A stretch of 64,000 nucleotides of DNA from Candidatus Saccharimonadales bacterium (GTDB lineage Bacteria > Patescibacteriota > Saccharimonadia > Saccharimonadales > JANWIN01), in the NCBI GenBank assembly GCA_025449905.1, contig JANWIN010000012.1, forward strand, positions 109,318-173,317, written 5' to 3'. Shown here one piece after another: positions 4,064 to 63,543 of this stretch. The number at the start of each line of letters is the position of its first letter. Position 1 is the first letter of the stretch. The notes below the pieces were generated by a model. The model ran no database searches. It saw only the letters and a program-made list of their open reading frames with translations, and had not been told where the DNA came from. Position numbers and translations under genes: made by a program.

Positions 4064-4798
4064 ATGCTAAATTTATTCGGTTCAGGAATTAAGTATAAAA
4101 TCTCCAGTTTTACAATCGGGCTAGCTACATTAGTTTTTACAGCTGGTGTAGCCATGGCTCAAGGTCAATATGTTAGGGGATCTACGGGCGTTGACGTTAG
4201 TTATCCTAACTGCAGCCAAAAAATTCCAAAAGTTGTTTTTGGAATAGTTGGCGTCAATGGTGGGCTAAATTTTTCCAAGAACCCGTGTTTGGCCAGCCAA
4301 TCTGCAAATTTTAAAAATCTAAGCTTGTATGTCAATACGGGCTACCCAGGTCAAAGCTACGGCTTGAAATATCAAAATTCTCCCAAAATCTGTTCAGGCT
4401 CAGACTTAAATTGCTTGGCTTACAATTACGGTTATAACGCTGGTCTTTATTCGGTCAATTATGCCAATAGCCTAAATGTACGAAGTTCGACTTGGTGGTT
4501 AGATGTTGAGAATGTTAACAGTTGGACCAATGATCCTCAGCAAAACCGTAATAGCCTGCAAGGCCAATACGAAGCAATAATTGCTTCGGGGGCCAGCACT
4601 GTTGGAGCCTACAGCACTACTGCCCAGTGGAATAGCATTACCGGGACCTGGCGCAATAATTGGCCGTCTTGGGGTGCCACTACTTGGACTACCGCCAAAC
4701 AAGCTTCAAAATATTGTACGGGACATGAATTTACTGGCGGTCCTTCTTATCTAATGCAATACAAGCCACGCGGCATCGACCAGGACTACGCCTGTTAA
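4064..4798 (+). CDS. secreted protein, possible GH25/DUF1906-like glycoside hydrolase fold
   Basis: It has a signal-like N-terminus. GVDVSYPNC and WWLDVE resemble the GIDVS...LDxE pattern of GH25-type TIM barrels. The assignment is tentative. Confidence 0.45.
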   Translation: MLNLFGSGIKYKISSFTIGLATLVFTAGVAMAQGQYVRGSTGVDVSYPNCSQKIPKVVFGIVGVNGGLNFSKNPCLASQSANFKNLSLYVNTGYPGQSYGLKYQNSPKICSGSDLNCLAYNYGYNAGLYSVNYANSLNVRSSTWWLDVENVNSWTNDPQQNRNSLQGQYEAIIASGASTVGAYSTTAQWNSITGTWRNNWPSWGATTWTTAKQASKYCTGHEFTGGPSYLMQYKPRGIDQDYAC

Positions 4799-19142: not shown

Positions 19143-19151
19143 TGTGGATAA
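19143..19151 (-). promoter_or_regulatory. perfect DnaA-box 9-mer (TTATCCACA on the minus strand)
   Basis: The + strand reads TGTGGATAA, 7 nt after the LPXTG gene stop. Confidence 0.3.
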
Positions 19152-40570: not shown

Positions 40571-40579
40571 TGTGGATAA
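40571..40579 (-). promoter_or_regulatory. perfect DnaA-box 9-mer (TTATCCACA on the minus strand)
   Basis: The + strand reads TGTGGATAA. It lies between the NrtR-like gene stop and the small-ORF cassette promoter. Confidence 0.3.
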
Positions 40580-47551: not shown

Positions 47552-48829
47552 GTGTTAAATAAGATAAAGAATCTTAAGGGACTTAAGCCCAAAAAAAACA
47601 GCAAACAGTATTTAGTGGCACTGGACATTGGAACTGAAAATGTTAAGGCCTTAGTGGCCGAAGCCAAAGATAATACAATTGAGATTATCGGTGTTGGTCG
47701 AGCTCATCAAGGATTATCGGACATGCAGGCTGGCGCCATTTCGGACATTGCCGGGGTAGTCAAAAACTGTGACGATGCCTTGAATCAAGCCGAACAGCAA
47801 GCTGGTGCCAGTGCCCGCCCGGCAGTTATTGGCATCGCTGGTGAGTTAGTAAAAGGTACAACTACCACTGTGCGGGTGCGTCGCAAGGATCCAGCTAAAG
47901 AACTGGATTTTGACGAAGTTGAGCGAATTATCACTTTGGTCCAAAAACGTGCCCAAGAGCGAGCCAAACAACAATTAGTCTGGGAGTTGGGTGGCAAAGA
48001 AGTTGAAACCCGACTGGTTAATAGCGCGCTAGTAAATATTGAAATTGATGATTATGCAGTTACCAATCCGGTCGGTTTTAAGGGCAAGGACGTGGTTGTC
48101 CAGTTGTATACGGCCTTTGCGCCGATGATACATATTGGCGCGTTGGAGCGCACCGCTAAAGAACTAGATTTAGATTTGTTAGCCGTAGCCGCCGAACCTT
48201 TTGCCGTGGCTCGCTCGGTAGTTGGCAATGACCCAAATAAAGCGATGAGTGCTGTTTTGATGGACGTCGGCGGCGGAACAACCGACATAGCAGTTATTAA
48301 TGAAGGCGGCGTGCAAGGTACAAAAATGTTTGGCATTGGCGGCCGGGCTTTTACACGCGCGGTTGAGCGCGACCTTGGGGTTAATTTTGATTCAGCCGAA
48401 CAGATGAAAATAGGCCTATCCACCAACCAAGCACCCCGAGCACAAATTCCATCAATTGAAGCGGCGCTTCGCAAAACCTTGGAAGTTTGGGCCAGCGGTG
48501 TATCTTTAGCCCTCGGCGAGTTTACCCAACTCGATAATCTACCCAATAAATTACTGCTCTGCGGTGGCGGCTCCTCACTGGAAATGTTGATGCACAAGCT
48601 AAACGAGGCCAGCTGGTCACATGAATTACCTTTTACCCAAAAACCATCGGTCCAGCATATTAAGCCCGAAGAAGTCTTGGGCATTGTTGATAAAACCGGC
48701 CACGTTGCCGACCATACCTTTATCACCGCTATGGGCCTGTTACGTGTTGGACTAGACACCCTGCAACAGGATGAAGAGGTTGAAGGAGATTCAATTCGTG
48801 AGAAAATAGATAGATTGCTAAGAGTATAA
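47552..48829 (+). CDS. ftsA: actin-like ATPase, FtsA-like cell-division protein
   Basis: Phosphate-1 VALDIGTENVKA, phosphate-2 DVGGGTTDIAVI, and adenosine motif LCGGGS. GTG start. Confidence 0.7.
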   Translation: MLNKIKNLKGLKPKKNSKQYLVALDIGTENVKALVAEAKDNTIEIIGVGRAHQGLSDMQAGAISDIAGVVKNCDDALNQAEQQAGASARPAVIGIAGELVKGTTTTVRVRRKDPAKELDFDEVERIITLVQKRAQERAKQQLVWELGGKEVETRLVNSALVNIEIDDYAVTNPVGFKGKDVVVQLYTAFAPMIHIGALERTAKELDLDLLAVAAEPFAVARSVVGNDPNKAMSAVLMDVGGGTTDIAVINEGGVQGTKMFGIGGRAFTRAVERDLGVNFDSAEQMKIGLSTNQAPRAQIPSIEAALRKTLEVWASGVSLALGEFTQLDNLPNKLLLCGGGSSLEMLMHKLNEASWSHELPFTQKPSVQHIKPEEVLGIVDKTGHVADHTFITAMGLLRVGLDTLQQDEEVEGDSIREKIDRLLRV

Positions 48830-48830
48830 A

Positions 48831-50495
48831 ATGGCAGATTCCAAAGATACAATTTATATAGATATTGATGATGAAATCACCTCCATCATTGACAAGATGC
48901 GCTCCAGCGACAAGAAGATTGTGGCGTTAGTGCTGCCTAAGCGGGCAACGGTGCTGCAGAGCATCGTTAATATGAAACTGCTTAAAAAGACGGCGGAAAA
49001 GGCTGATAAAAATGTCGTGCTGATAACTTCCGAAGAAGGACTATTACCGCTGGCCGGCGCCGTGGGTGTGCATGTAGCTTCAACGCTGCAGAGTAAACCA
49101 GAAATACCACCCCCTCCTGACACCCTACCAGTTGGCGAAAAGCCAATACATGAAGAAGTCCCCGAAGACCCGAATCATAAAGTTGGAAAAGCTGAAGCGG
49201 CTGCGGCGGTGGCTGGCGCGGCGGCATTAAAGGCTCAAGCTAAGGATCACCCCAAGGAAGAAACCGTTGAGCTGGATGATAGTGAGAAATCCGCCGGTAA
49301 AAAACCAGCCAGCAAATCTAAAGATAAGAAAACCAAAGTACCCAACTTTGACAAGTTTAGAAAGCGACTGGTTATTGGTGCCCTAGCGGCTGTTGCCTTT
49401 ATTGTGCTATGGATTCTTGCTTTTGGCACACTCCAAAAAGCCACAATTATTATTAAAACAGACACAACTAATCAAGATATAAATCCGGATATTACGGTTG
49501 ATACTGATGCCAAATCGGTTAGCGTAGGCAGCGGCATTGTTCCAGGACATGTTAAGGAAATTAAGCATTCCGATTCACAAAGCGCACCGGCGACCGGCGA
49601 GAAAAATAAAGGCAGTAAAGCCACCGGTCAATTAACTGCTACCAACTGTAATTCACTCAGCCACCCCACGGTACTGGCCGGCTCAAAGTTCACTTCTGAC
49701 GGCGGCAAAGTCTTTACCAACAACTCTTCATTTACGCCAAGTACAGCACTTGTAAATGGTTCTATATGTTATACAGCTACATTTGGCGTAACAGCGGTCG
49801 AAGGCGGCGCCAGCTACAATTTACCTTCCTCTACTTCTTATACTAGTTCTTCACTAAAAGACTATGACATCAGTGGTAAAACTAGCGGTGGCACTGACCA
49901 AATTGTAAAAGTGGTTAGCCAAGCCGATATCGACAGCGCTAAACAAAAGACAACCAGTGATAAAGATGAAGCCAAAGCTGATCTTAAAAAGGCACTGGAA
50001 GAAGACGGCCTGTATGCAATTACCGACAGTTTTAATGGCGGGAAAGCTACTGTAAGCAGCTCGCCGCAAGTTGGGCAAGAGGCCGATAGTGTTAATGTAA
50101 CTTCAACAATTACTTACACCATGCTGGGGGTAAAAGAAGAAAGTCTTGAAAAAATAATTGATAACAGCGTAAAAGGCGAAATTGACACTAAAACTCAGTC
50201 GGTCCAAGACTATGGGCTAGATAACGCCAACTTTACTGTTAATGATAAAAACGGCAATCAAACCAGAATGTCGATGCAAACCACCATTGCCATTGGCCCC
50301 AAACTTAATGTTGATGAAGTCAAGCAACAGGTAGCTGGCAAAGAAAAAGGCACTATTCAGGATGAAATAGGCAACGTTGAAGGGGTTAAAGAAGTAATAG
50401 TCGACTTCAGTCCGTTTTGGGTACATAAGGCGCCTAAAAACCCTGCCAAGATAAATGTCGTAATTGAAAGTGCTAATGAGTCAGGAACCCCCTAA
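48831..50495 (+). CDS. bitopic membrane protein coupled to ftsA, unknown function
   Basis: The start lies 1 nt after the ftsA stop. A ~90-aa cytoplasmic domain is followed by a Pro/Lys-rich linker, a TM LVIGALAAVAFIVLWILAFG, and a ~350-aa Ser/Thr-rich exodomain. Confidence 0.6.
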   Translation: MADSKDTIYIDIDDEITSIIDKMRSSDKKIVALVLPKRATVLQSIVNMKLLKKTAEKADKNVVLITSEEGLLPLAGAVGVHVASTLQSKPEIPPPPDTLPVGEKPIHEEVPEDPNHKVGKAEAAAAVAGAAALKAQAKDHPKEETVELDDSEKSAGKKPASKSKDKKTKVPNFDKFRKRLVIGALAAVAFIVLWILAFGTLQKATIIIKTDTTNQDINPDITVDTDAKSVSVGSGIVPGHVKEIKHSDSQSAPATGEKNKGSKATGQLTATNCNSLSHPTVLAGSKFTSDGGKVFTNNSSFTPSTALVNGSICYTATFGVTAVEGGASYNLPSSTSYTSSSLKDYDISGKTSGGTDQIVKVVSQADIDSAKQKTTSDKDEAKADLKKALEEDGLYAITDSFNGGKATVSSSPQVGQEADSVNVTSTITYTMLGVKEESLEKIIDNSVKGEIDTKTQSVQDYGLDNANFTVNDKNGNQTRMSMQTTIAIGPKLNVDEVKQQVAGKEKGTIQDEIGNVEGVKEVIVDFSPFWVHKAPKNPAKINVVIESANESGTP

Positions 50496-53346: not shown

Positions 53347-54609
53347 ATGTTTGTAGACACTGTAAAAATAAAGCTTGAGGCTGGCAAAGGTGGTGATGGC
53401 GCAGTTAGTTTTCGGCATGAAAAATATGTTGACCGCGGCGGACCGGATGGTGGTGATGGCGGTAGGGGTGGCGATATTATCCTAGAGGCCAGCCGTAATC
53501 AAAACACGCTGGCAGCTTTTCGGCATAAGAAATTATTAAAAGCTCAAGATGGCCAAACTGGCAGTAAGGTAAAGCGTCATGGCAAAAGCGGCCAGAATTT
53601 AATCGTACCCGTGCCGATTGGAACGGTGGCAATTGATAAAACCGGCAAGGTTTTAGCTGATCTAACAAACGATAACCAACAAACGGTAATTGCTAACGGC
53701 GGACAGGGTGGTTTTGGCAATGCTCACTTTGTGTCATCGCGCCGTCAAGCTCCACGCATAGCTGAAAATGGTGAGAAGGGTGACAAGCTGGAAGTTAGCT
53801 TGGAGCTTAAATTAATAGCTGATGTGGGCATTGTTGGCCTGCCAAATGCCGGTAAAAGCACCCTGCTGTCAGTAATTAGTCATGCTCGGCCGGAAATCGC
53901 CGATTATCCATTTACAACTCTAGCGCCTAACTTGGGGATGGTTGATATTGATAAAAAAACCAGCCTGTTATTTGCAGATATCCCCGGATTGATTGCCGGC
54001 GCTAGCCACGGCAAGGGTTTGGGCGATGAATTTTTACGGCACGTTGAGCGCACTAGTGTACTGGTGCACTTAATCGATGTTTATGAGAACGTCACCAGGG
54101 CTTACAAAATAATTCAAAAAGAATTGAAGGATTACAAAATCGACTTGTCCAAGCGGCCGCAAATTATCGCGCTTACCAAAACCGAGGGCCTAAATAAAAA
54201 GGAGATTAGTGCCGTGACTCGTGAGCTAAAGCCGTTTTTACCCAAGAAGACTCCACTACTGGCTATTTCTGCCCAGAGCCACGAAAATCTGGACAAACTG
54301 CTTTATAAAGCCAAAGAACTGGTAGCCAAACACAAAGTCGCCAAACCCAAACAAGGCAAGAAGAAATTGCCGGTGTTGCGTCTACCTCGCAGCCTAGATT
54401 CTTGGAAGGTTGTGAGGCGGGGCGATAAATATATAATTTCTGGTCGCAAGATTGAGCGCTTTGCAGAGCGGACGGATTTTGATAATCCCGAAGCCGTTGC
54501 CAGGTTGAGGAATATTATAAAAAAAATGGGTATTGCTCACGAACTAATCAGGCAAGGCATCAAATCTAACGAAACGATTGTAATTGGTAAGAGCAGCCTC
54601 AAATGGTAG
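53347..54609 (+). CDS. obgE: GTPase ObgE/CgtA
   Basis: Obg fold MFVDTVKIKLEAGKGGDG with Gly-rich repeats, G1 GLPNAGKST, G3 DIPGL, and a C-terminal OCT-like domain. Confidence 0.9.
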   Translation: MFVDTVKIKLEAGKGGDGAVSFRHEKYVDRGGPDGGDGGRGGDIILEASRNQNTLAAFRHKKLLKAQDGQTGSKVKRHGKSGQNLIVPVPIGTVAIDKTGKVLADLTNDNQQTVIANGGQGGFGNAHFVSSRRQAPRIAENGEKGDKLEVSLELKLIADVGIVGLPNAGKSTLLSVISHARPEIADYPFTTLAPNLGMVDIDKKTSLLFADIPGLIAGASHGKGLGDEFLRHVERTSVLVHLIDVYENVTRAYKIIQKELKDYKIDLSKRPQIIALTKTEGLNKKEISAVTRELKPFLPKKTPLLAISAQSHENLDKLLYKAKELVAKHKVAKPKQGKKKLPVLRLPRSLDSWKVVRRGDKYIISGRKIERFAERTDFDNPEAVARLRNIIKKMGIAHELIRQGIKSNETIVIGKSSLKW

Positions 54610-54611
54610 GG

Positions 54612-55148
54612 TTATAGACAGTGGGTGTAGTTTAAGCTTGTAACCGGCAGCTTATCGACAAGGATCTTGTCTTTGCCGCTGCTAAGAAGCAGCTTAATAC
54701 TGACAGATTCTGTAGCCTTAACACTATCTAAATCAATACCATTCGCAAGCTCGCCCCACCAGCCAGTTGACCAGCCCTGTTTTGGTTTGTTTTTAATGTG
54801 TTTACTGCCTTGGTAAACCGATACTTTTACGCCTTCGACCTTAACAGGCCTGGAACGCGACGGTTTGGCGCGGAATGTAGTTACATGAAGTGCGTACTTG
54901 CTTGAATATATATTTTTGGGGTCTGACTGCCCCTTAAAGACAACATAATAATATGACTCAGCATCCTTGTAGTTATCCGGAAAGACTGTCCAGCTGCAAG
55001 CTTCTGATTTTGGTTTGGACTTTATTTGGTTATAAATAGCATATCCGATTACAGTTACGACAAACAGAACGATTAAAACTAAGAAAACCTTTATGTAGTT
55101 ATTTTTTGACATAGTTTTTGCCATAGTTTGTTTCTTTGCTCTTTTCAT
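54612..55148 (-). CDS. membrane-anchored exported protein, tandem paralog 3 of 3
   Basis: A Lys-rich N-terminus is followed by a single TM, one Cys shortly after the TM (SEAC), a GWSTGWWGE block, and a Cys two residues from the C-terminus (THCL). Confidence 0.55.
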   Translation of the reverse strand: MKRAKKQTMAKTMSKNNYIKVFLVLIVLFVVTVIGYAIYNQIKSKPKSEACSWTVFPDNYKDAESYYYVVFKGQSDPKNIYSSKYALHVTTFRAKPSRSRPVKVEGVKVSVYQGSKHIKNKPKQGWSTGWWGELANGIDLDSVKATESVSIKLLLSSGKDKILVDKLPVTSLNYTHCL

Positions 55149-55154
55149 AATTTT

Positions 55155-55622
55155 TTAACAATTTCTAATTGAGTTTAGTGGCCAAGGATCTCCGGAAGTA
55201 ATATTCGTAAAGAACCTAACAGTGTTTACAGGATTCACTGGATAGTATTCAACATATGCTTGGGTAGCATAAAGACCATACCAATTACTACTGCTCTTTG
55301 CTTTTGAGCCCCTTTCGCTTGTACTAAGATAGATTGTCTTATATGCCGTGGAGTATCGAGTGGTAAAGTTTTTTACTAGGTATTTATTTGGCGCGCGAAA
55401 TGATTTGCAGGCTTGGATTTTTAGACCATAGTACCCGGGATTAATTGTAGTTAGTCCACCAGCTTGGGCTTTATAGATTTTGTCATACGCTACAAGCCCT
55501 GTTGAGGCTAGTACTAAAACTAAAGCCAGGGACAGAAATATTTTTTTGGGCTTTGAGTCGGTCTTGAACCAACCGGCGTACAGTTTACCTTGAGTATTTT
55601 TCTTTGTTACTTTTTGAGCCAT
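55155..55622 (-). CDS. membrane-anchored exported protein, tandem paralog 2 of 3
   Basis: Same architecture: Lys-rich N-terminus, TM, Cys (IQAC), an SSNWYG block, and a terminal Cys (IRNC). Confidence 0.55.
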   Translation of the reverse strand: MAQKVTKKNTQGKLYAGWFKTDSKPKKIFLSLALVLVLASTGLVAYDKIYKAQAGGLTTINPGYYGLKIQACKSFRAPNKYLVKNFTTRYSTAYKTIYLSTSERGSKAKSSSNWYGLYATQAYVEYYPVNPVNTVRFFTNITSGDPWPLNSIRNC

Positions 55623-55647
55623 TTGCGTTTTCGACTGCTACTAAACA

Positions 55648-56208
55648 TTAACAGTCTTTTATCTCACTTGAAGAGAAATATTTACTTGATATTATTTTAC
55701 TCGCTTTAACTTCTTTCAAAGTTTTCGAATCAATTAGCACTTCAAATCTTACGCTCTTGCCTGACGCGATGCTTCTTTGACTGCTATTTGCTACTCCAAA
55801 CCACCAACTAGTTGACCATTCATCGAGCAAAACTTCATTACTATTGTGACTTGGAATGATACGAATGCCATAAACATTAGGCGAGTATCTAATGGTCCAA
55901 GACCTTATGCTATAAAGTCCAGAAGTGCCGCCGTATTTACAAACAGCAACTGTAGCAGGCACATTTTCATTGAATTTGACTACTGTATAGTTGTTATTAA
56001 ATGCCCGAGTATTAATTTGGCGTTCTTTAACTTTGCTATAAGCAGTAAAACCAGCTGTAGCTAAAATTAAAACTAAAACAGCAGCTAAAAACCCCTTCAG
56101 CCATTTGGGTTGTTTTTTTATTGAACCACCAACTTTGGCCAAGCTATTTGTTTTTTTATTCGTTTTCATGTTTTTATTTTTTGTGAGCTTATAAGTAAAC
56201 ATTAGCAC
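55648..56208 (-). CDS. membrane-anchored exported protein, tandem paralog 1 of 3
   Basis: Same architecture: Lys-rich N-terminus, TM, Cys (VAVC), an EWSTSWWFG block, and a terminal Cys (IKDC). The likely start is the internal MKTNKK. Confidence 0.55.
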   Translation of the reverse strand: MLMFTYKLTKNKNMKTNKKTNSLAKVGGSIKKQPKWLKGFLAAVLVLILATAGFTAYSKVKERQINTRAFNNNYTVVKFNENVPATVAVCKYGGTSGLYSIRSWTIRYSPNVYGIRIIPSHNSNEVLLDEWSTSWWFGVANSSQRSIASGKSVRFEVLIDSKTLKEVKASKIISSKYFSSSEIKDC

Positions 56209-56244
56209 GTTTTACAGATTAAACAAGAAGGGAAAATTGTCCGC

Positions 56245-56253
56245 TGTGGATAA
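56245..56253 (-). promoter_or_regulatory. perfect DnaA-box 9-mer (TTATCCACA on the minus strand)
   Basis: The + strand reads TGTGGATAA, in the divergent promoter region between the paralog operon and lepB. Confidence 0.3.
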
Positions 56254-56287
56254 GTTAAACAGCTAATGCTCTACTATATAAGCAGTA

Positions 56288-57832
56288 ATGTTAGGAAGAA
56301 CAAAAAAACTGGCCATCCTTTTTGGGTTGATCGAGCTTTTTGCAACCTTTGGCTTCTTATTAAAACCCGCGGCAGCATTGCCTCTATCTACTAGTTGCGG
56401 CTCTAACCTCATTAACTATACAGCTCTGTATCCGCTGGAAGCTGATACTTACGATGTCTATGTTCGTTTGGGCAAACGCGACCAAACCGCTAAAGCAGCA
56501 CTTTATTTACAGCCATTAGATTCAGAAAGCTGCCAAAAACTGGTTGACTCTAAGGTAAACGGCAAAAAGTGGACCCGTGCTGGCACTATAGAAAATACCC
56601 AGCCAACCCAAGCCACCTTGACTCTCGCTTCCAGCGAGTTTGAAGACTTACCGAGCGCCAATAGTCCCACGGTTATGCTGGTACCTCGTTCTGCTCCAGT
56701 CTGCCAGCCAACCACCGAATGTTTTGTAAATATTAACGGTAAGCGGGGAGTTGTACATGCCACCGGCACAAAACTTGGCCAGGATTCGCTGCATGTGGTG
56801 GTGCCTAAAAACCCCGCCAACGATAAACTTCTATCTGTCGACTATTACATTGACAACAAGCTTGCCTATTCTTTGAGCGAAATTAAACCTTTTAATATGC
56901 GCTATGTTGGCGGCGGTGAACACACCTTAGCGACAGTCGCCACCTATGATTCACAGCAACAAATTGTCTTTAGCGAGCAAATTAAACAAAACGCCTATGA
57001 TGACTTGGACAATTTATTATTCAGCGGTTGGCATAAATATAAACCGGTTTTTATTATTGGTATCTCACTGCTGTTCATCTACGCCGTTTTTACCCTGTGC
57101 CTTTACGTGGCCCGCAAAGTCTATCAAAAACGGTTGTGGGAAAAACTTCACGATGTTTCTATTAAGACGCTTGATGCTACGGCGCCTGACCAGTCGCAAA
57201 TAACCACCATAAAACTAAAATTCCTAGCGATTAATCCGGATTTGAGAAAAGTTGCCAAACGCTCCGCAATTTTTATTGCTATTCTGGCCAGCTCTGTGGT
57301 GCTAATTATTGTCGCCAACAACTGGGTTTTACAATTATACGAGGTTGACGGACCGAGTATGAAAAGTACTTTGCAAAATGGCGACGGCATCGTAGTCAAT
57401 AAATTTGGCAAGGCTTGGCAGGGTATACTCGGCAAACCATACATACCCAAGAGAGGCGAGGTAGTGGTCTTTAGCCGTGCACAGGATGTTTTATATGAGC
57501 CGGTTGAAAGCAGCGCTCCGACATATTTAGTTAAACGTGTAGTTGGTCTACCGGGTGAGCGGGTTGTGGTAAAAGAGGGTAAGGTAACAGTTTATAATGA
57601 CGCCAATAAAAATGGTTTTAACCCGGACGATTCTAAAGACTGGACCAAAGATTTGCACTTGAGCCAGTACGATCGCATCGATCTTACAGTTGGCCCTGAC
57701 GAGATTTTTGTTTGCGGCGATAACCGCGAAGAGTCGATTGATTCACGTTCGTTCGGACCGATTAAGATAAATCAGGTGGTAGGAGATGTTGCTTTTAGAC
57801 TTTCGCCGCTAAGTCATATACGTATACTTTAA
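56288..57832 (+). CDS. lepB: signal peptidase I with a ~330-aa N-terminal extension
   Basis: The C-terminal SPase I boxes are GPSMKSTL (Ser), VKRVVGLPGE (Lys) and GDNREESIDSRSFG. They are preceded by an extra exodomain and two TM segments. Confidence 0.8.
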   Translation: MLGRTKKLAILFGLIELFATFGFLLKPAAALPLSTSCGSNLINYTALYPLEADTYDVYVRLGKRDQTAKAALYLQPLDSESCQKLVDSKVNGKKWTRAGTIENTQPTQATLTLASSEFEDLPSANSPTVMLVPRSAPVCQPTTECFVNINGKRGVVHATGTKLGQDSLHVVVPKNPANDKLLSVDYYIDNKLAYSLSEIKPFNMRYVGGGEHTLATVATYDSQQQIVFSEQIKQNAYDDLDNLLFSGWHKYKPVFIIGISLLFIYAVFTLCLYVARKVYQKRLWEKLHDVSIKTLDATAPDQSQITTIKLKFLAINPDLRKVAKRSAIFIAILASSVVLIIVANNWVLQLYEVDGPSMKSTLQNGDGIVVNKFGKAWQGILGKPYIPKRGEVVVFSRAQDVLYEPVESSAPTYLVKRVVGLPGERVVVKEGKVTVYNDANKNGFNPDDSKDWTKDLHLSQYDRIDLTVGPDEIFVCGDNREESIDSRSFGPIKINQVVGDVAFRLSPLSHIRIL

Positions 57833-59527: not shown

Positions 59528-60130
59528 ATGAAACAAACACACAGAAGACCAAGAGACAGCTTAAATTCAAACGGAAATTCGCGAATGGGAAAAAGTATTT
59601 CAAACGGTTTTGGCATAGTACGCAGGTTAACCCCTCCATCTCAACAGGAGCTTTTTGAGCATTTAGACGAAGCTGAAATAAATAATTCTATGGTTCGTCG
59701 CAGGACGCCCAGTCACTTAACAGTTATTCAATTTCTTAAATTATCTAAACACGAACAAAAGGCACTACATGTTGGTTTTAATATTGGTCGTTTAGAACAT
59801 AGATTAGAAAATGGCAACGGCAACGGTGATGGCGTACCTAGAAGAGCATTAACCGTAGAGCTGGGAGCAGTGGCATACTTAGGTAATTTTATTTATGCAG
59901 AAGTAGGTAATTCTGAGATAGATGACGAACAACTAAAACTAGCTGGTCAAATTGCCTTACACGGGATTTCACCCGTCAAGATAAACAGAAAAATTGTACC
60001 GCCCCATATCGGCATAGGCCATGCTCAACAAGGACCAATCGAAGAAATGCGCGAAAAAGTAGAAGATGCACTTAGCGGACAACATGTCGCCCTACAGCGC
60101 TGGCAGGTTTATCCAGATAGATACGCTTAG
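59528..60130 (+). CDS. hypothetical protein (possible degenerate 2H-phosphoesterase-like)
   Basis: 200-aa ORF, AT-rich. SHLTV and PHIGI lie about 87 aa apart and loosely resemble paired HxT/Sx motifs. It has a GNGNGNGDG low-complexity loop. Confidence 0.45.
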   Translation: MKQTHRRPRDSLNSNGNSRMGKSISNGFGIVRRLTPPSQQELFEHLDEAEINNSMVRRRTPSHLTVIQFLKLSKHEQKALHVGFNIGRLEHRLENGNGNGDGVPRRALTVELGAVAYLGNFIYAEVGNSEIDDEQLKLAGQIALHGISPVKINRKIVPPHIGIGHAQQGPIEEMREKVEDALSGQHVALQRWQVYPDRYA

Positions 60131-62997: not shown

Positions 62998-63543
62998 TTA
63001 ATCAATTGTGGAGCCAGGGGCAGGGGTATAGAATCCTAATTTCCTCATTCTTGGTCTAAGTTTCGCAGCGACAAAGCCTGCGTATCTAGTCTCGTCATGA
63101 GCTTGAACATTCTCGCCTAAGATCTTGCGAGCTTGGATTATGGATCCCTCTCCGTAGCGCATTTTTCTAAGATAGATTTTTGACTCTAAAGTATAAAATA
63201 CACTATCTGTAACAAGCGTAGATAGCAAATTAATATGCTGGTTACGCACAAAATATATATCAGCTGGTTTAGTTGGCTCCACAAAAGTGGCTCTACACTC
63301 TGATTCCTTTGCTAATTTGGCGATTGGTTCAAATCTTGCCGCAACAGTCGCGTTAGAGTGGGGTGGATATAAGGTTTCAACAGGATTATCATATTTGAAC
63401 TCAGGATGTTGACTCTGAAGTCCCTCTAGTAAAAGAGAGCCCGCACTTTTTACTAGTTGGTCAAAGTCAGCAGGAATTCTTAGGCCTGTTATGGTTTCAC
63501 CAGGCTGCACATTTTCAATTGATAAACTGTCTACACCGACCAT
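62998..63543 (-). CDS. hypothetical protein
   Basis: From the ORF track only (181 aa). No recognisable motif. Confidence 0.45.
   Translation of the reverse strand: MVGVDSLSIENVQPGETITGLRIPADFDQLVKSAGSLLLEGLQSQHPEFKYDNPVETLYPPHSNATVAARFEPIAKLAKESECRATFVEPTKPADIYFVRNQHINLLSTLVTDSVFYTLESKIYLRKMRYGEGSIIQARKILGENVQAHDETRYAGFVAAKLRPRMRKLGFYTPAPGSTID

Follow-up and report, generated by a model that had tools for sequence, protein, structure and literature searches.

A tandem triplet of small, basic, two-cysteine proteins in a variable slot beside obg in a Saccharimonadales genome

Three consecutive minus-strand genes, here A186, B155 and C178, were found between the genes for the GTPase Obg (obg) and an S26 signal peptidase I (lepB) in a stretch of 64,000 nucleotides from a Candidatus Saccharimonadales bacterium (GCA_025449905.1, contig JANWIN010000012.1, positions 109,318 to 173,317 of the forward strand). 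This whole stretch is referred to as the window and all positions are given in its coordinates. We read the triplet as a tandemly duplicated, fast-diverging and lineage-private family of small bitopic envelope proteins, and consider this reading, the disulfide and the ligand binding included, reasonably probable. The three proteins are built on one plan, match nothing but themselves in the databases searched, and are encoded in a place where relatives carry other genes or none.

Three tandem paralogues built on one plan

The genes and the segments of their products discussed below are as follows.

55648..56208, minus strand: gene A186, 186 amino acids, GTG start, first of the triplet
55155..55622, minus strand: gene B155, 155 amino acids, middle and most divergent member
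54612..55148, minus strand: gene C178, 178 amino acids, last of the triplet
56035..56094, minus strand: A186 hydrophobic segment GFLAAVLVLILATAGFTAYS, residues 39-58, a signal anchor or the hydrophobic core (h-region) of a signal peptide
55485..55541, minus strand: B155 hydrophobic segment IFLSLALVLVLASTGLVAY, residues 28-46
55032..55088, minus strand: C178 hydrophobic segment VFLVLIVLFVVTVIGYAIY, residues 21-39
55795..55821, minus strand: A186 Trp-rich motif EWSTSWWFG, best-conserved block of the family
54750..54776, minus strand: C178 Trp-rich motif GWSTGWWGE
55275..55292, minus strand: B155 Trp motif SSNWYG, degenerate

The gaps are 25 nt between A186 and B155 and 6 nt between B155 and C178, and the positions, lengths and gaps given for the three open reading frames (ORFs) in the first-pass annotation, which was made from the sequence alone, match exactly. 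With the base composition of this region, stop codons should occur approximately every 14 codons, so that 155 to 186 open codons have a chance probability of ~1e-5 to 1e-6 per ORF. Because of these improbable lengths and the tight spacing on one strand, A186, B155 and C178 are real genes; spurious ORFs are excluded by the length statistics together with the paralogy at the protein level. The genes are co-oriented and probably co-transcribed. The database copy of A186 (P0001) has 184 amino acids and starts at Met3, and Met14 is an alternative possible start; C178 has alternative starts at Met9 and Met13.

Full-length BLASTP gave E = 2.6e-6 for A186 and C178, 0.099 for A186 and B155, and 2.7 for B155 and C178, at mutual identities of ~22-28%. 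A comparison restricted to the ectodomains, thus leaving out the similarity of the Lys-rich tails and the helices, and set against 2000 shuffles, gave z = 6.6 (Gumbel p ~1e-4) for A186 and C178 and z = 3.4 (p = 0.007) for A186 and B155. Leave-one-out profiles were searched among ~1650 decoy ORFs; the profile of B155 and C178 found A186 at E = 9.5e-5, and that of A186 and B155 found C178 at E = 0.02. The WST(S/G)WW motif is also visible in the DNA, where 16 of 18 nt are identical between A186 and C178 (repeat D10, 55801-55818 vs 54756-54773, 89%). At the level of sequence, A186 and C178 are clearly related.

The N-terminal regions of the three proteins contain 7-11 Lys and Arg and 0-1 Asp and Glu residues (net charge +7 to +11), and are followed in each protein by one run of 19-20 uncharged residues with TAY, VAY or AIY at its end. 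The ectodomains span 110-140 residues with a net charge of +8 to +10. Calculated per residue, the triplet carries +0.10 vs 0.010 +/- 0.037 in 59 window proteins, which is ~2.5 standard deviations (sd) above the mean. Each protein contains exactly two Cys: Cys90 and Cys186 in A186, Cys72 and Cys155 in B155, and Cys51 and Cys177 in C178. The second Cys is the last residue in A186 (C-terminal context IKDC) and B155 (IRNC) and the penultimate one in C178 (THCL). The Lys-rich N-terminus, single helix, A/I-Y ending, Trp block and C-terminal Cys that the first-pass annotation had described are present in all three proteins. Its placing of the internal Cys 25-45 residues past the transmembrane (TM) helix holds for A186 (32 residues) and B155 (26) and fails for C178, in which the distance is 12 residues and the Cys is unaligned.

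Predicted topology, disulfide and fold

The family probably originated by local tandem duplication, followed by divergence to the present level of identity. The basic cytoplasmic N-tail and the 19-20-residue helix would insert each protein via Sec with the N-terminus in and the C-terminus out, a signal-anchor topology favoured by the positive-inside rule and by the length of the helix, and the basic ectodomain, predicted to be all-beta, would thereby be placed outside the membrane. There the C-terminal Cys would be disulfide-bonded to the single internal Cys and pin the last strand to the domain. Such a disulfide is the simplest reading of the Cys pair, and the retention of the terminal Cys through ~75% sequence divergence argues for functional importance. 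Extracytoplasmic disulfides are plausible in this clade, since all 4 Cys in the N-terminal domain of LepB are invariant relative to the homologues in the related loci L019 (11327-12841) and L031 (3776-5290) at 29% overall identity, and since a secreted protein encoded at 4064..4798 has six Cys, one of them its last residue. From the charge density of the ectodomains and the Trp block we infer a putative binding surface for anionic cell-wall glycopolymers, either the cell's own or those of a host.

The AlphaFold2 model of A186, built from the three-sequence alignment, has a mean predicted local distance difference test score (pLDDT) of 57 and displays a helix at residues 35-65, followed by ~8 strands. 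These 31 helical residues are the best-scoring part of the model. The C178 ectodomain was modelled as all-beta at a mean pLDDT of 48, and an all-beta fold is thus probable for the triplet ectodomains as far as the models go. Foldseek searches with both models against PDB, and against BFVD, returned nothing at E <= 0.001. The list for A186 is led by FN3/monobody and SoxYZ immunoglobulin-like (Ig-like) sandwiches (E 0.06-0.5, TM-score 0.2-0.3), and the list for C178 consists of mixed beta folds. FN3 and Ig-like sandwiches resemble the predicted A186 ectodomain in being all-beta with a similar number of strands; however, the A186 matches have E values of at least 0.06 and are non-significant, and the C178 model lacks the same pattern.

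Several of the results weigh against the reading of the triplet as one family of anchored, disulfide-stapled domains. The ectodomains of B155 and C178 show no similarity relative to shuffles, and the profile of A186 and C178 fails to recover B155 among the decoys. A186 accordingly bridges the family, with a significant link to C178, a modest one to B155 and none detectable between B155 and C178, and B155 is tied to the others modestly, via A186 (p = 0.007), its adjacent position, its terminal Cys and the common architecture. In C178 the internal Cys is off the alignment column common to A186 and B155, so that the three proteins need not have one and the same disulfide geometry. The best Foldseek E values, 0.06 and 0.2, come from two low-confidence models, and the A186 and C178 models point to no single fold class. 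Finally, small residues follow the hydrophobic core (ATA-G, AST-G, TVIG-Y); as possible signal peptidase I sites they make release instead of anchoring possible. The local duplication and strong divergence proposed in the first-pass annotation are consequently borne out for A186 and C178 and, modestly, for A186 and B155. The comparison of ectodomain models that it called for gave two beta-rich predictions without a common fold class.

Secretion is the strongest of the alternatives, possible and yet less probable than not. The proteins would then carry a long signal peptide of the Gram-positive Sec type that is cut by signal peptidase I, possibly the adjacent LepB, and the beta-domains would be released to the wall or the medium. 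Hydrophobic cores of ~11 residues followed by residues compatible with positions -3 and -1 of a cleavage site (LATA|G, ASTG|L, TVIG|Y) are consistent with this, as are the divergent position of lepB next to A186 and the lack of an LPXTG, a lipobox or another retention motif in the triplet. The neighbouring signal peptidase is a possible candidate for the processing enzyme. On the other hand, 19-20 uncharged residues in a row exceed the usual length of an h-region, and the modelled A186 helix runs continuously across the putative cleavage site.

A private family in a variable slot

The bitopic envelope family favoured here is confined to the three proteins in every search performed. In a word-indexed search of 5.8e9 clusters, the queries A186, C178 and the ectodomain profile matched nothing but the triplet itself, even at E <= 10, and each of the triplet proteins forms a singleton cluster there, all three from a single 185-kb NCBI contig. 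An exhaustive HMMER profile scan of 1.84e9 representatives found the three triplet proteins alone; since this set includes the proteins of the source genome, a further detectable paralogue there is improbable. The scan of viral contigs found nothing, and the search of all window ORFs with the triplet (phmmer and hmmsearch) found nothing further. Only sub-threshold matches, mostly to TM or low-complexity regions, were obtained in Pfam, NCBIfam, PHROGs, PADLOC and the PDB sequence profile search, in agreement with the first-pass annotation, in which no family was recognised. PADLOC had zero matches, and the best PHROGs match (E = 0.016, over the B155 TM region) is not significant across 38,880 models. 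DUF4307 (PF14155), the best Pfam match of A186, was rejected: it reached 12.7 bits where 27 are required (E = 0.12), over residues 35-70 only, which cover the helix at 39-58 and its flanks and bear no likeness to the ectodomain. In databases this large a match becomes significant only at approximately 45 bits, a score higher than any between the paralogues, so that relatives no closer than the sampled Saccharimonadaceae could have escaped detection.

The genes flanking the triplet are

53347..54609, plus strand: obg (GTPase), convergent with C178, used as the anchor for synteny comparisons
56288..57832, plus strand: lepB, S26 signal peptidase I (Peptidase_S26, E = 1e-32), divergent from A186

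and both are the neighbours that the first-pass annotation had named. Genes for an SbcB-like exonuclease, a LysM-CHAP protein, YceG and RuvX are also located nearby. The Obg-anchored loci closest to the source belong to Saccharimonas and to metagenome-assembled genomes of Saccharimonadaceae, which places the source among the Saccharibacteria. The nearest Obg is 62% identical among 185,579 species genomes and 64% identical in the metagenome collection, and a lineage with relatives this distant is poorly sampled, which accounts in part for the orphan status of the triplet.

The gene order in the relatives is obg, the sbcB-like exonuclease gene and, farther on, uvrA. The interval after obg is empty in L001, L002, L012, L013 and L033, where obg adjoins sbcB. 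L019 and L029-L031 contain there a lepB that also encodes the extra N-terminal domain and a gene for an anchored protein of 330 amino acids, L014 and L018 contain pilin-like genes with GFTLIE, L007 and L008 a secreted protein of 123 amino acids with Cys as its last residue, and L015 an anchored protein of 557 amino acids. A 259-amino-acid ORF in L028 was judged, by eye only, to be endonuclease/exonuclease/phosphatase-like. All ORFs of the obg-syntenic loci were searched with phmmer and hmmsearch, and the triplet family was absent from 57 of 57; BLASTP against the proteins in the relatives' slots gave a best E of 0.13, over the signal-peptide or TM stretch only. The slot between obg and lepB or sbcB thus turns over rapidly among relatives and often holds exported genes, which agrees with the accessory or fast-evolving locus suggested by the first-pass annotation. 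The search for the family in related genomes that it recommended yielded no member in the syntenic loci and no expansion beyond the three proteins.

The triplet locus has 37.8% G+C compared to 43.8% in the window, and is its lowest 1.6-kb stretch (0.6th percentile). A figure of ~33%, counted by hand from 60 nt, had earlier been given; the dip is real and smaller than in that sample. The G+C content at the first codon position (GC1) is 0.35-0.42 in the triplet vs 0.525 +/- 0.052 in the 59 gene proxies of the window, and Phe, Tyr, Met, Ile, Asn and Lys (FYMINK) make up 0.35-0.36 of the residues vs 0.28. At the third position (GC3) the values are 0.29 for A186 (~2 sd below the mean), 0.34 for B155 (mildly low) and 0.43 for C178, vs 0.405 +/- 0.056 in the proxies. 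The dip is therefore mostly one of the first codon position and reflects proteins rich in Lys, Asn, Ile and Tyr. The windowed profiles proposed in the first-pass annotation are accordingly not flat, and they reveal no consistent foreign codon usage.

These values bear on the reading of the triplet as foreign cargo, either a phage moron or the remnant of a mobile element with its low G+C derived from the donor, which we regard as improbable. The base composition of the locus, the GC3 of A186 and the lack of the family in the syntenic slot of every relative are what such an origin would predict. The dip, however, lies mainly at codon position 1 and is compositional, and the GC3 of C178 is normal, so that low G+C is poor evidence of foreign origin. 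No integrase, transposase, tRNA target or flanking repeats were found at the triplet, and a search for insertion scars was uninformative. Neither was any match obtained in viral contigs, PHROGs or the viral structure library, nor any donor-like homologue among 15 billion proteins.

Weaker assignments, other features of the locus and significance

Type IV pilins have a short leader with Gly at -1, Phe or Met at +1 and Glu at +5, and an alpha-1 helix of ~50 residues on an antiparallel beta-sheet; the saccharibacterial pilins are extremely divergent 'lollipop' proteins. Like them, the triplet proteins have a charged leader, a hydrophobic N-terminal helix, a predicted beta-rich globular part, a Cys pair involving the C-terminal region and a high level of divergence, and true pilin-like genes occupy the same slot in L014 and L018. 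Divergent pilins have been reported from TM7x, as have minor pilins that lack PilD signals (bioRxiv 10.1101/2024.11.25.624915). Nevertheless, non-canonical pilin-like or pseudopilin subunits are very unlikely here, and the reading was rejected on the absence of the class III signal (Gly-1/Phe+1/Glu+5) from all three proteins (0/3). A Gly-Phe pair is present only in A186 (KG|FLAAV), with Val at +5, and in B155 and C178 the helix is not preceded by Gly. All the leaders are Lys-rich, with lengths of 20-38 residues. No genes for pilus machinery (PilB/C/D/M-O) are adjacent; the actin-like gene at 47552 is a better match to FtsA than to PilM. There is no significant match in sequence or fold; the sole pseudopilin fold match (EpsI/J, E = 0.4, probability 0.11) was obtained with the model of pLDDT 48.

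Arrays of small paralogues anchored in the membrane are characteristic of immunity genes. The triplet resembles such an array and the gene for a LysM-CHAP hydrolase lies 1.5 kb from it, and the proteins could in principle be components of a toxin/immunity or anti-phage defence system, for instance conferring immunity to a secreted wall hydrolase. This is equally hard to credit: PADLOC detected nothing, no toxin gene is adjacent, obg stands between the triplet and the hydrolase gene, and the latter looks like a housekeeping autolysin beside MltG/YceG.

Three further assignments were discarded. A lipobox ([LVI][ASTVI][GAS]C) is absent from all three proteins (0/3), which are thus not lipoproteins, and sortase substrates are dismissed since none of the three has an LPXTG-like motif and each ends at or near a Cys. 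SoxY has its C-terminal Cys on a swinging arm in a Gly-rich GGCGG motif and is encoded next to other sox genes; a SoxY-like carrier was rejected because the triplet has no GGCGG (IKDC, IRNC and THCL instead), no sox genes nearby and structural matches of E = 0.2-0.45.

The region upstream of the triplet contains

56209..56287, strand not applicable: divergent intergenic region between A186 and lepB, 79 nt, presumed promoter region of the triplet operon
56245..56253, minus strand: perfect DnaA-box 9-mer TTATCCACA, intergenic

The DnaA-box 9-mer was reported in the first-pass annotation and was found in the divergent promoter region as described. A scan of 56209..56287 for the sigma-70 consensus gave no convincing site, and the promoter and terminator scans of the triplet locus were uninformative. 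Three perfect copies of TTATCCACA are present in the window (19143-19151, 40571-40579 and 56245-56253), all on the minus strand and all intergenic (3/3) even though coding sequence takes up ~92% of the window. A count of 0.43 was expected, and three copies were reached by 1 of 100 shuffles. Two of the three have the common extended form TTATCCACAGC..AATTTT. As the boxes stand singly and form no cluster, they do not resemble an origin and may represent a regulatory motif.

At the other end of the triplet, the stop codons of the convergent obg and C178 are just 2 nt apart (54607-54614). No terminator-like hairpin was seen at this junction, and transcripts from either side would thus read antisense into the other gene. 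A Shine-Dalgarno core (GGAG, GAGG or AGGA) precedes only 8 of the 59 gene proxies in the window, which suggests that initiation in the source genome is largely independent of Shine-Dalgarno pairing. With such cores being rare in the source genome, their absence at the triplet carries no meaning.

The lepB product has an extra extracytoplasmic N-terminal domain of ~250 residues without a Pfam match, and its parts are arranged in the order signal peptide, extra domain, TM segment and S26 domain. The 244-amino-acid product of 4064..4798 (plus strand) has a signal peptide (..AGVAMA|QG), 3.3% Trp and no Pfam match in addition to its six Cys; it was considered as a distant relative of the triplet and rejected (hidden Markov model E ~1). 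ORFs without a Pfam match are also located at 48831-50495 (plus), 59528-60130 (plus) and 62998-63543 (minus). The first of these, of 554 amino acids, comes directly after the FtsA/PilM-like actin-fold gene at 47552-48829 and overlaps it by 1 nt.

Private families of hypothetical envelope proteins are common in genomes of the candidate phyla radiation (CPR). The triplet belongs to this familiar class, the small exported proteins that are restricted to single lineages of symbionts with reduced genomes, and resembles the lineage-specific surface proteins of CPR/Patescibacteria in size, N-terminal signal or anchor, lineage restriction, diverged tandem paralogy and location in a variable slot, the class being defined by architecture only and not as a curated family. 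What distinguishes the triplet within it is the WST-x-WW motif, the terminal Cys and the strongly basic ectodomain. A bolder version, which we put forward as speculation with little weight, is that the proteins are a newly born or hyper-diverging family of disulfide-stapled Trp-patch domains that bind the cell-wall glycopolymers of a host and contribute to host range in an unsampled saccharibacterial lineage, and that the interval between obg and sbcB is a conserved 'surface-protein swap slot' across Saccharimonadaceae, in which every lineage places exported proteins of its own.

At present the triplet mainly adds a further family to the many of this kind, and its low G+C reflects protein composition and not a clear foreign origin. 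If the proteins are indeed exposed on the surface, they would be candidate strain-specific determinants of the contact of an episymbiont with its host or with its own wall, and, should the obg-sbcB interval be a hot spot, it would be a convenient place to seek such determinants in other genomes.

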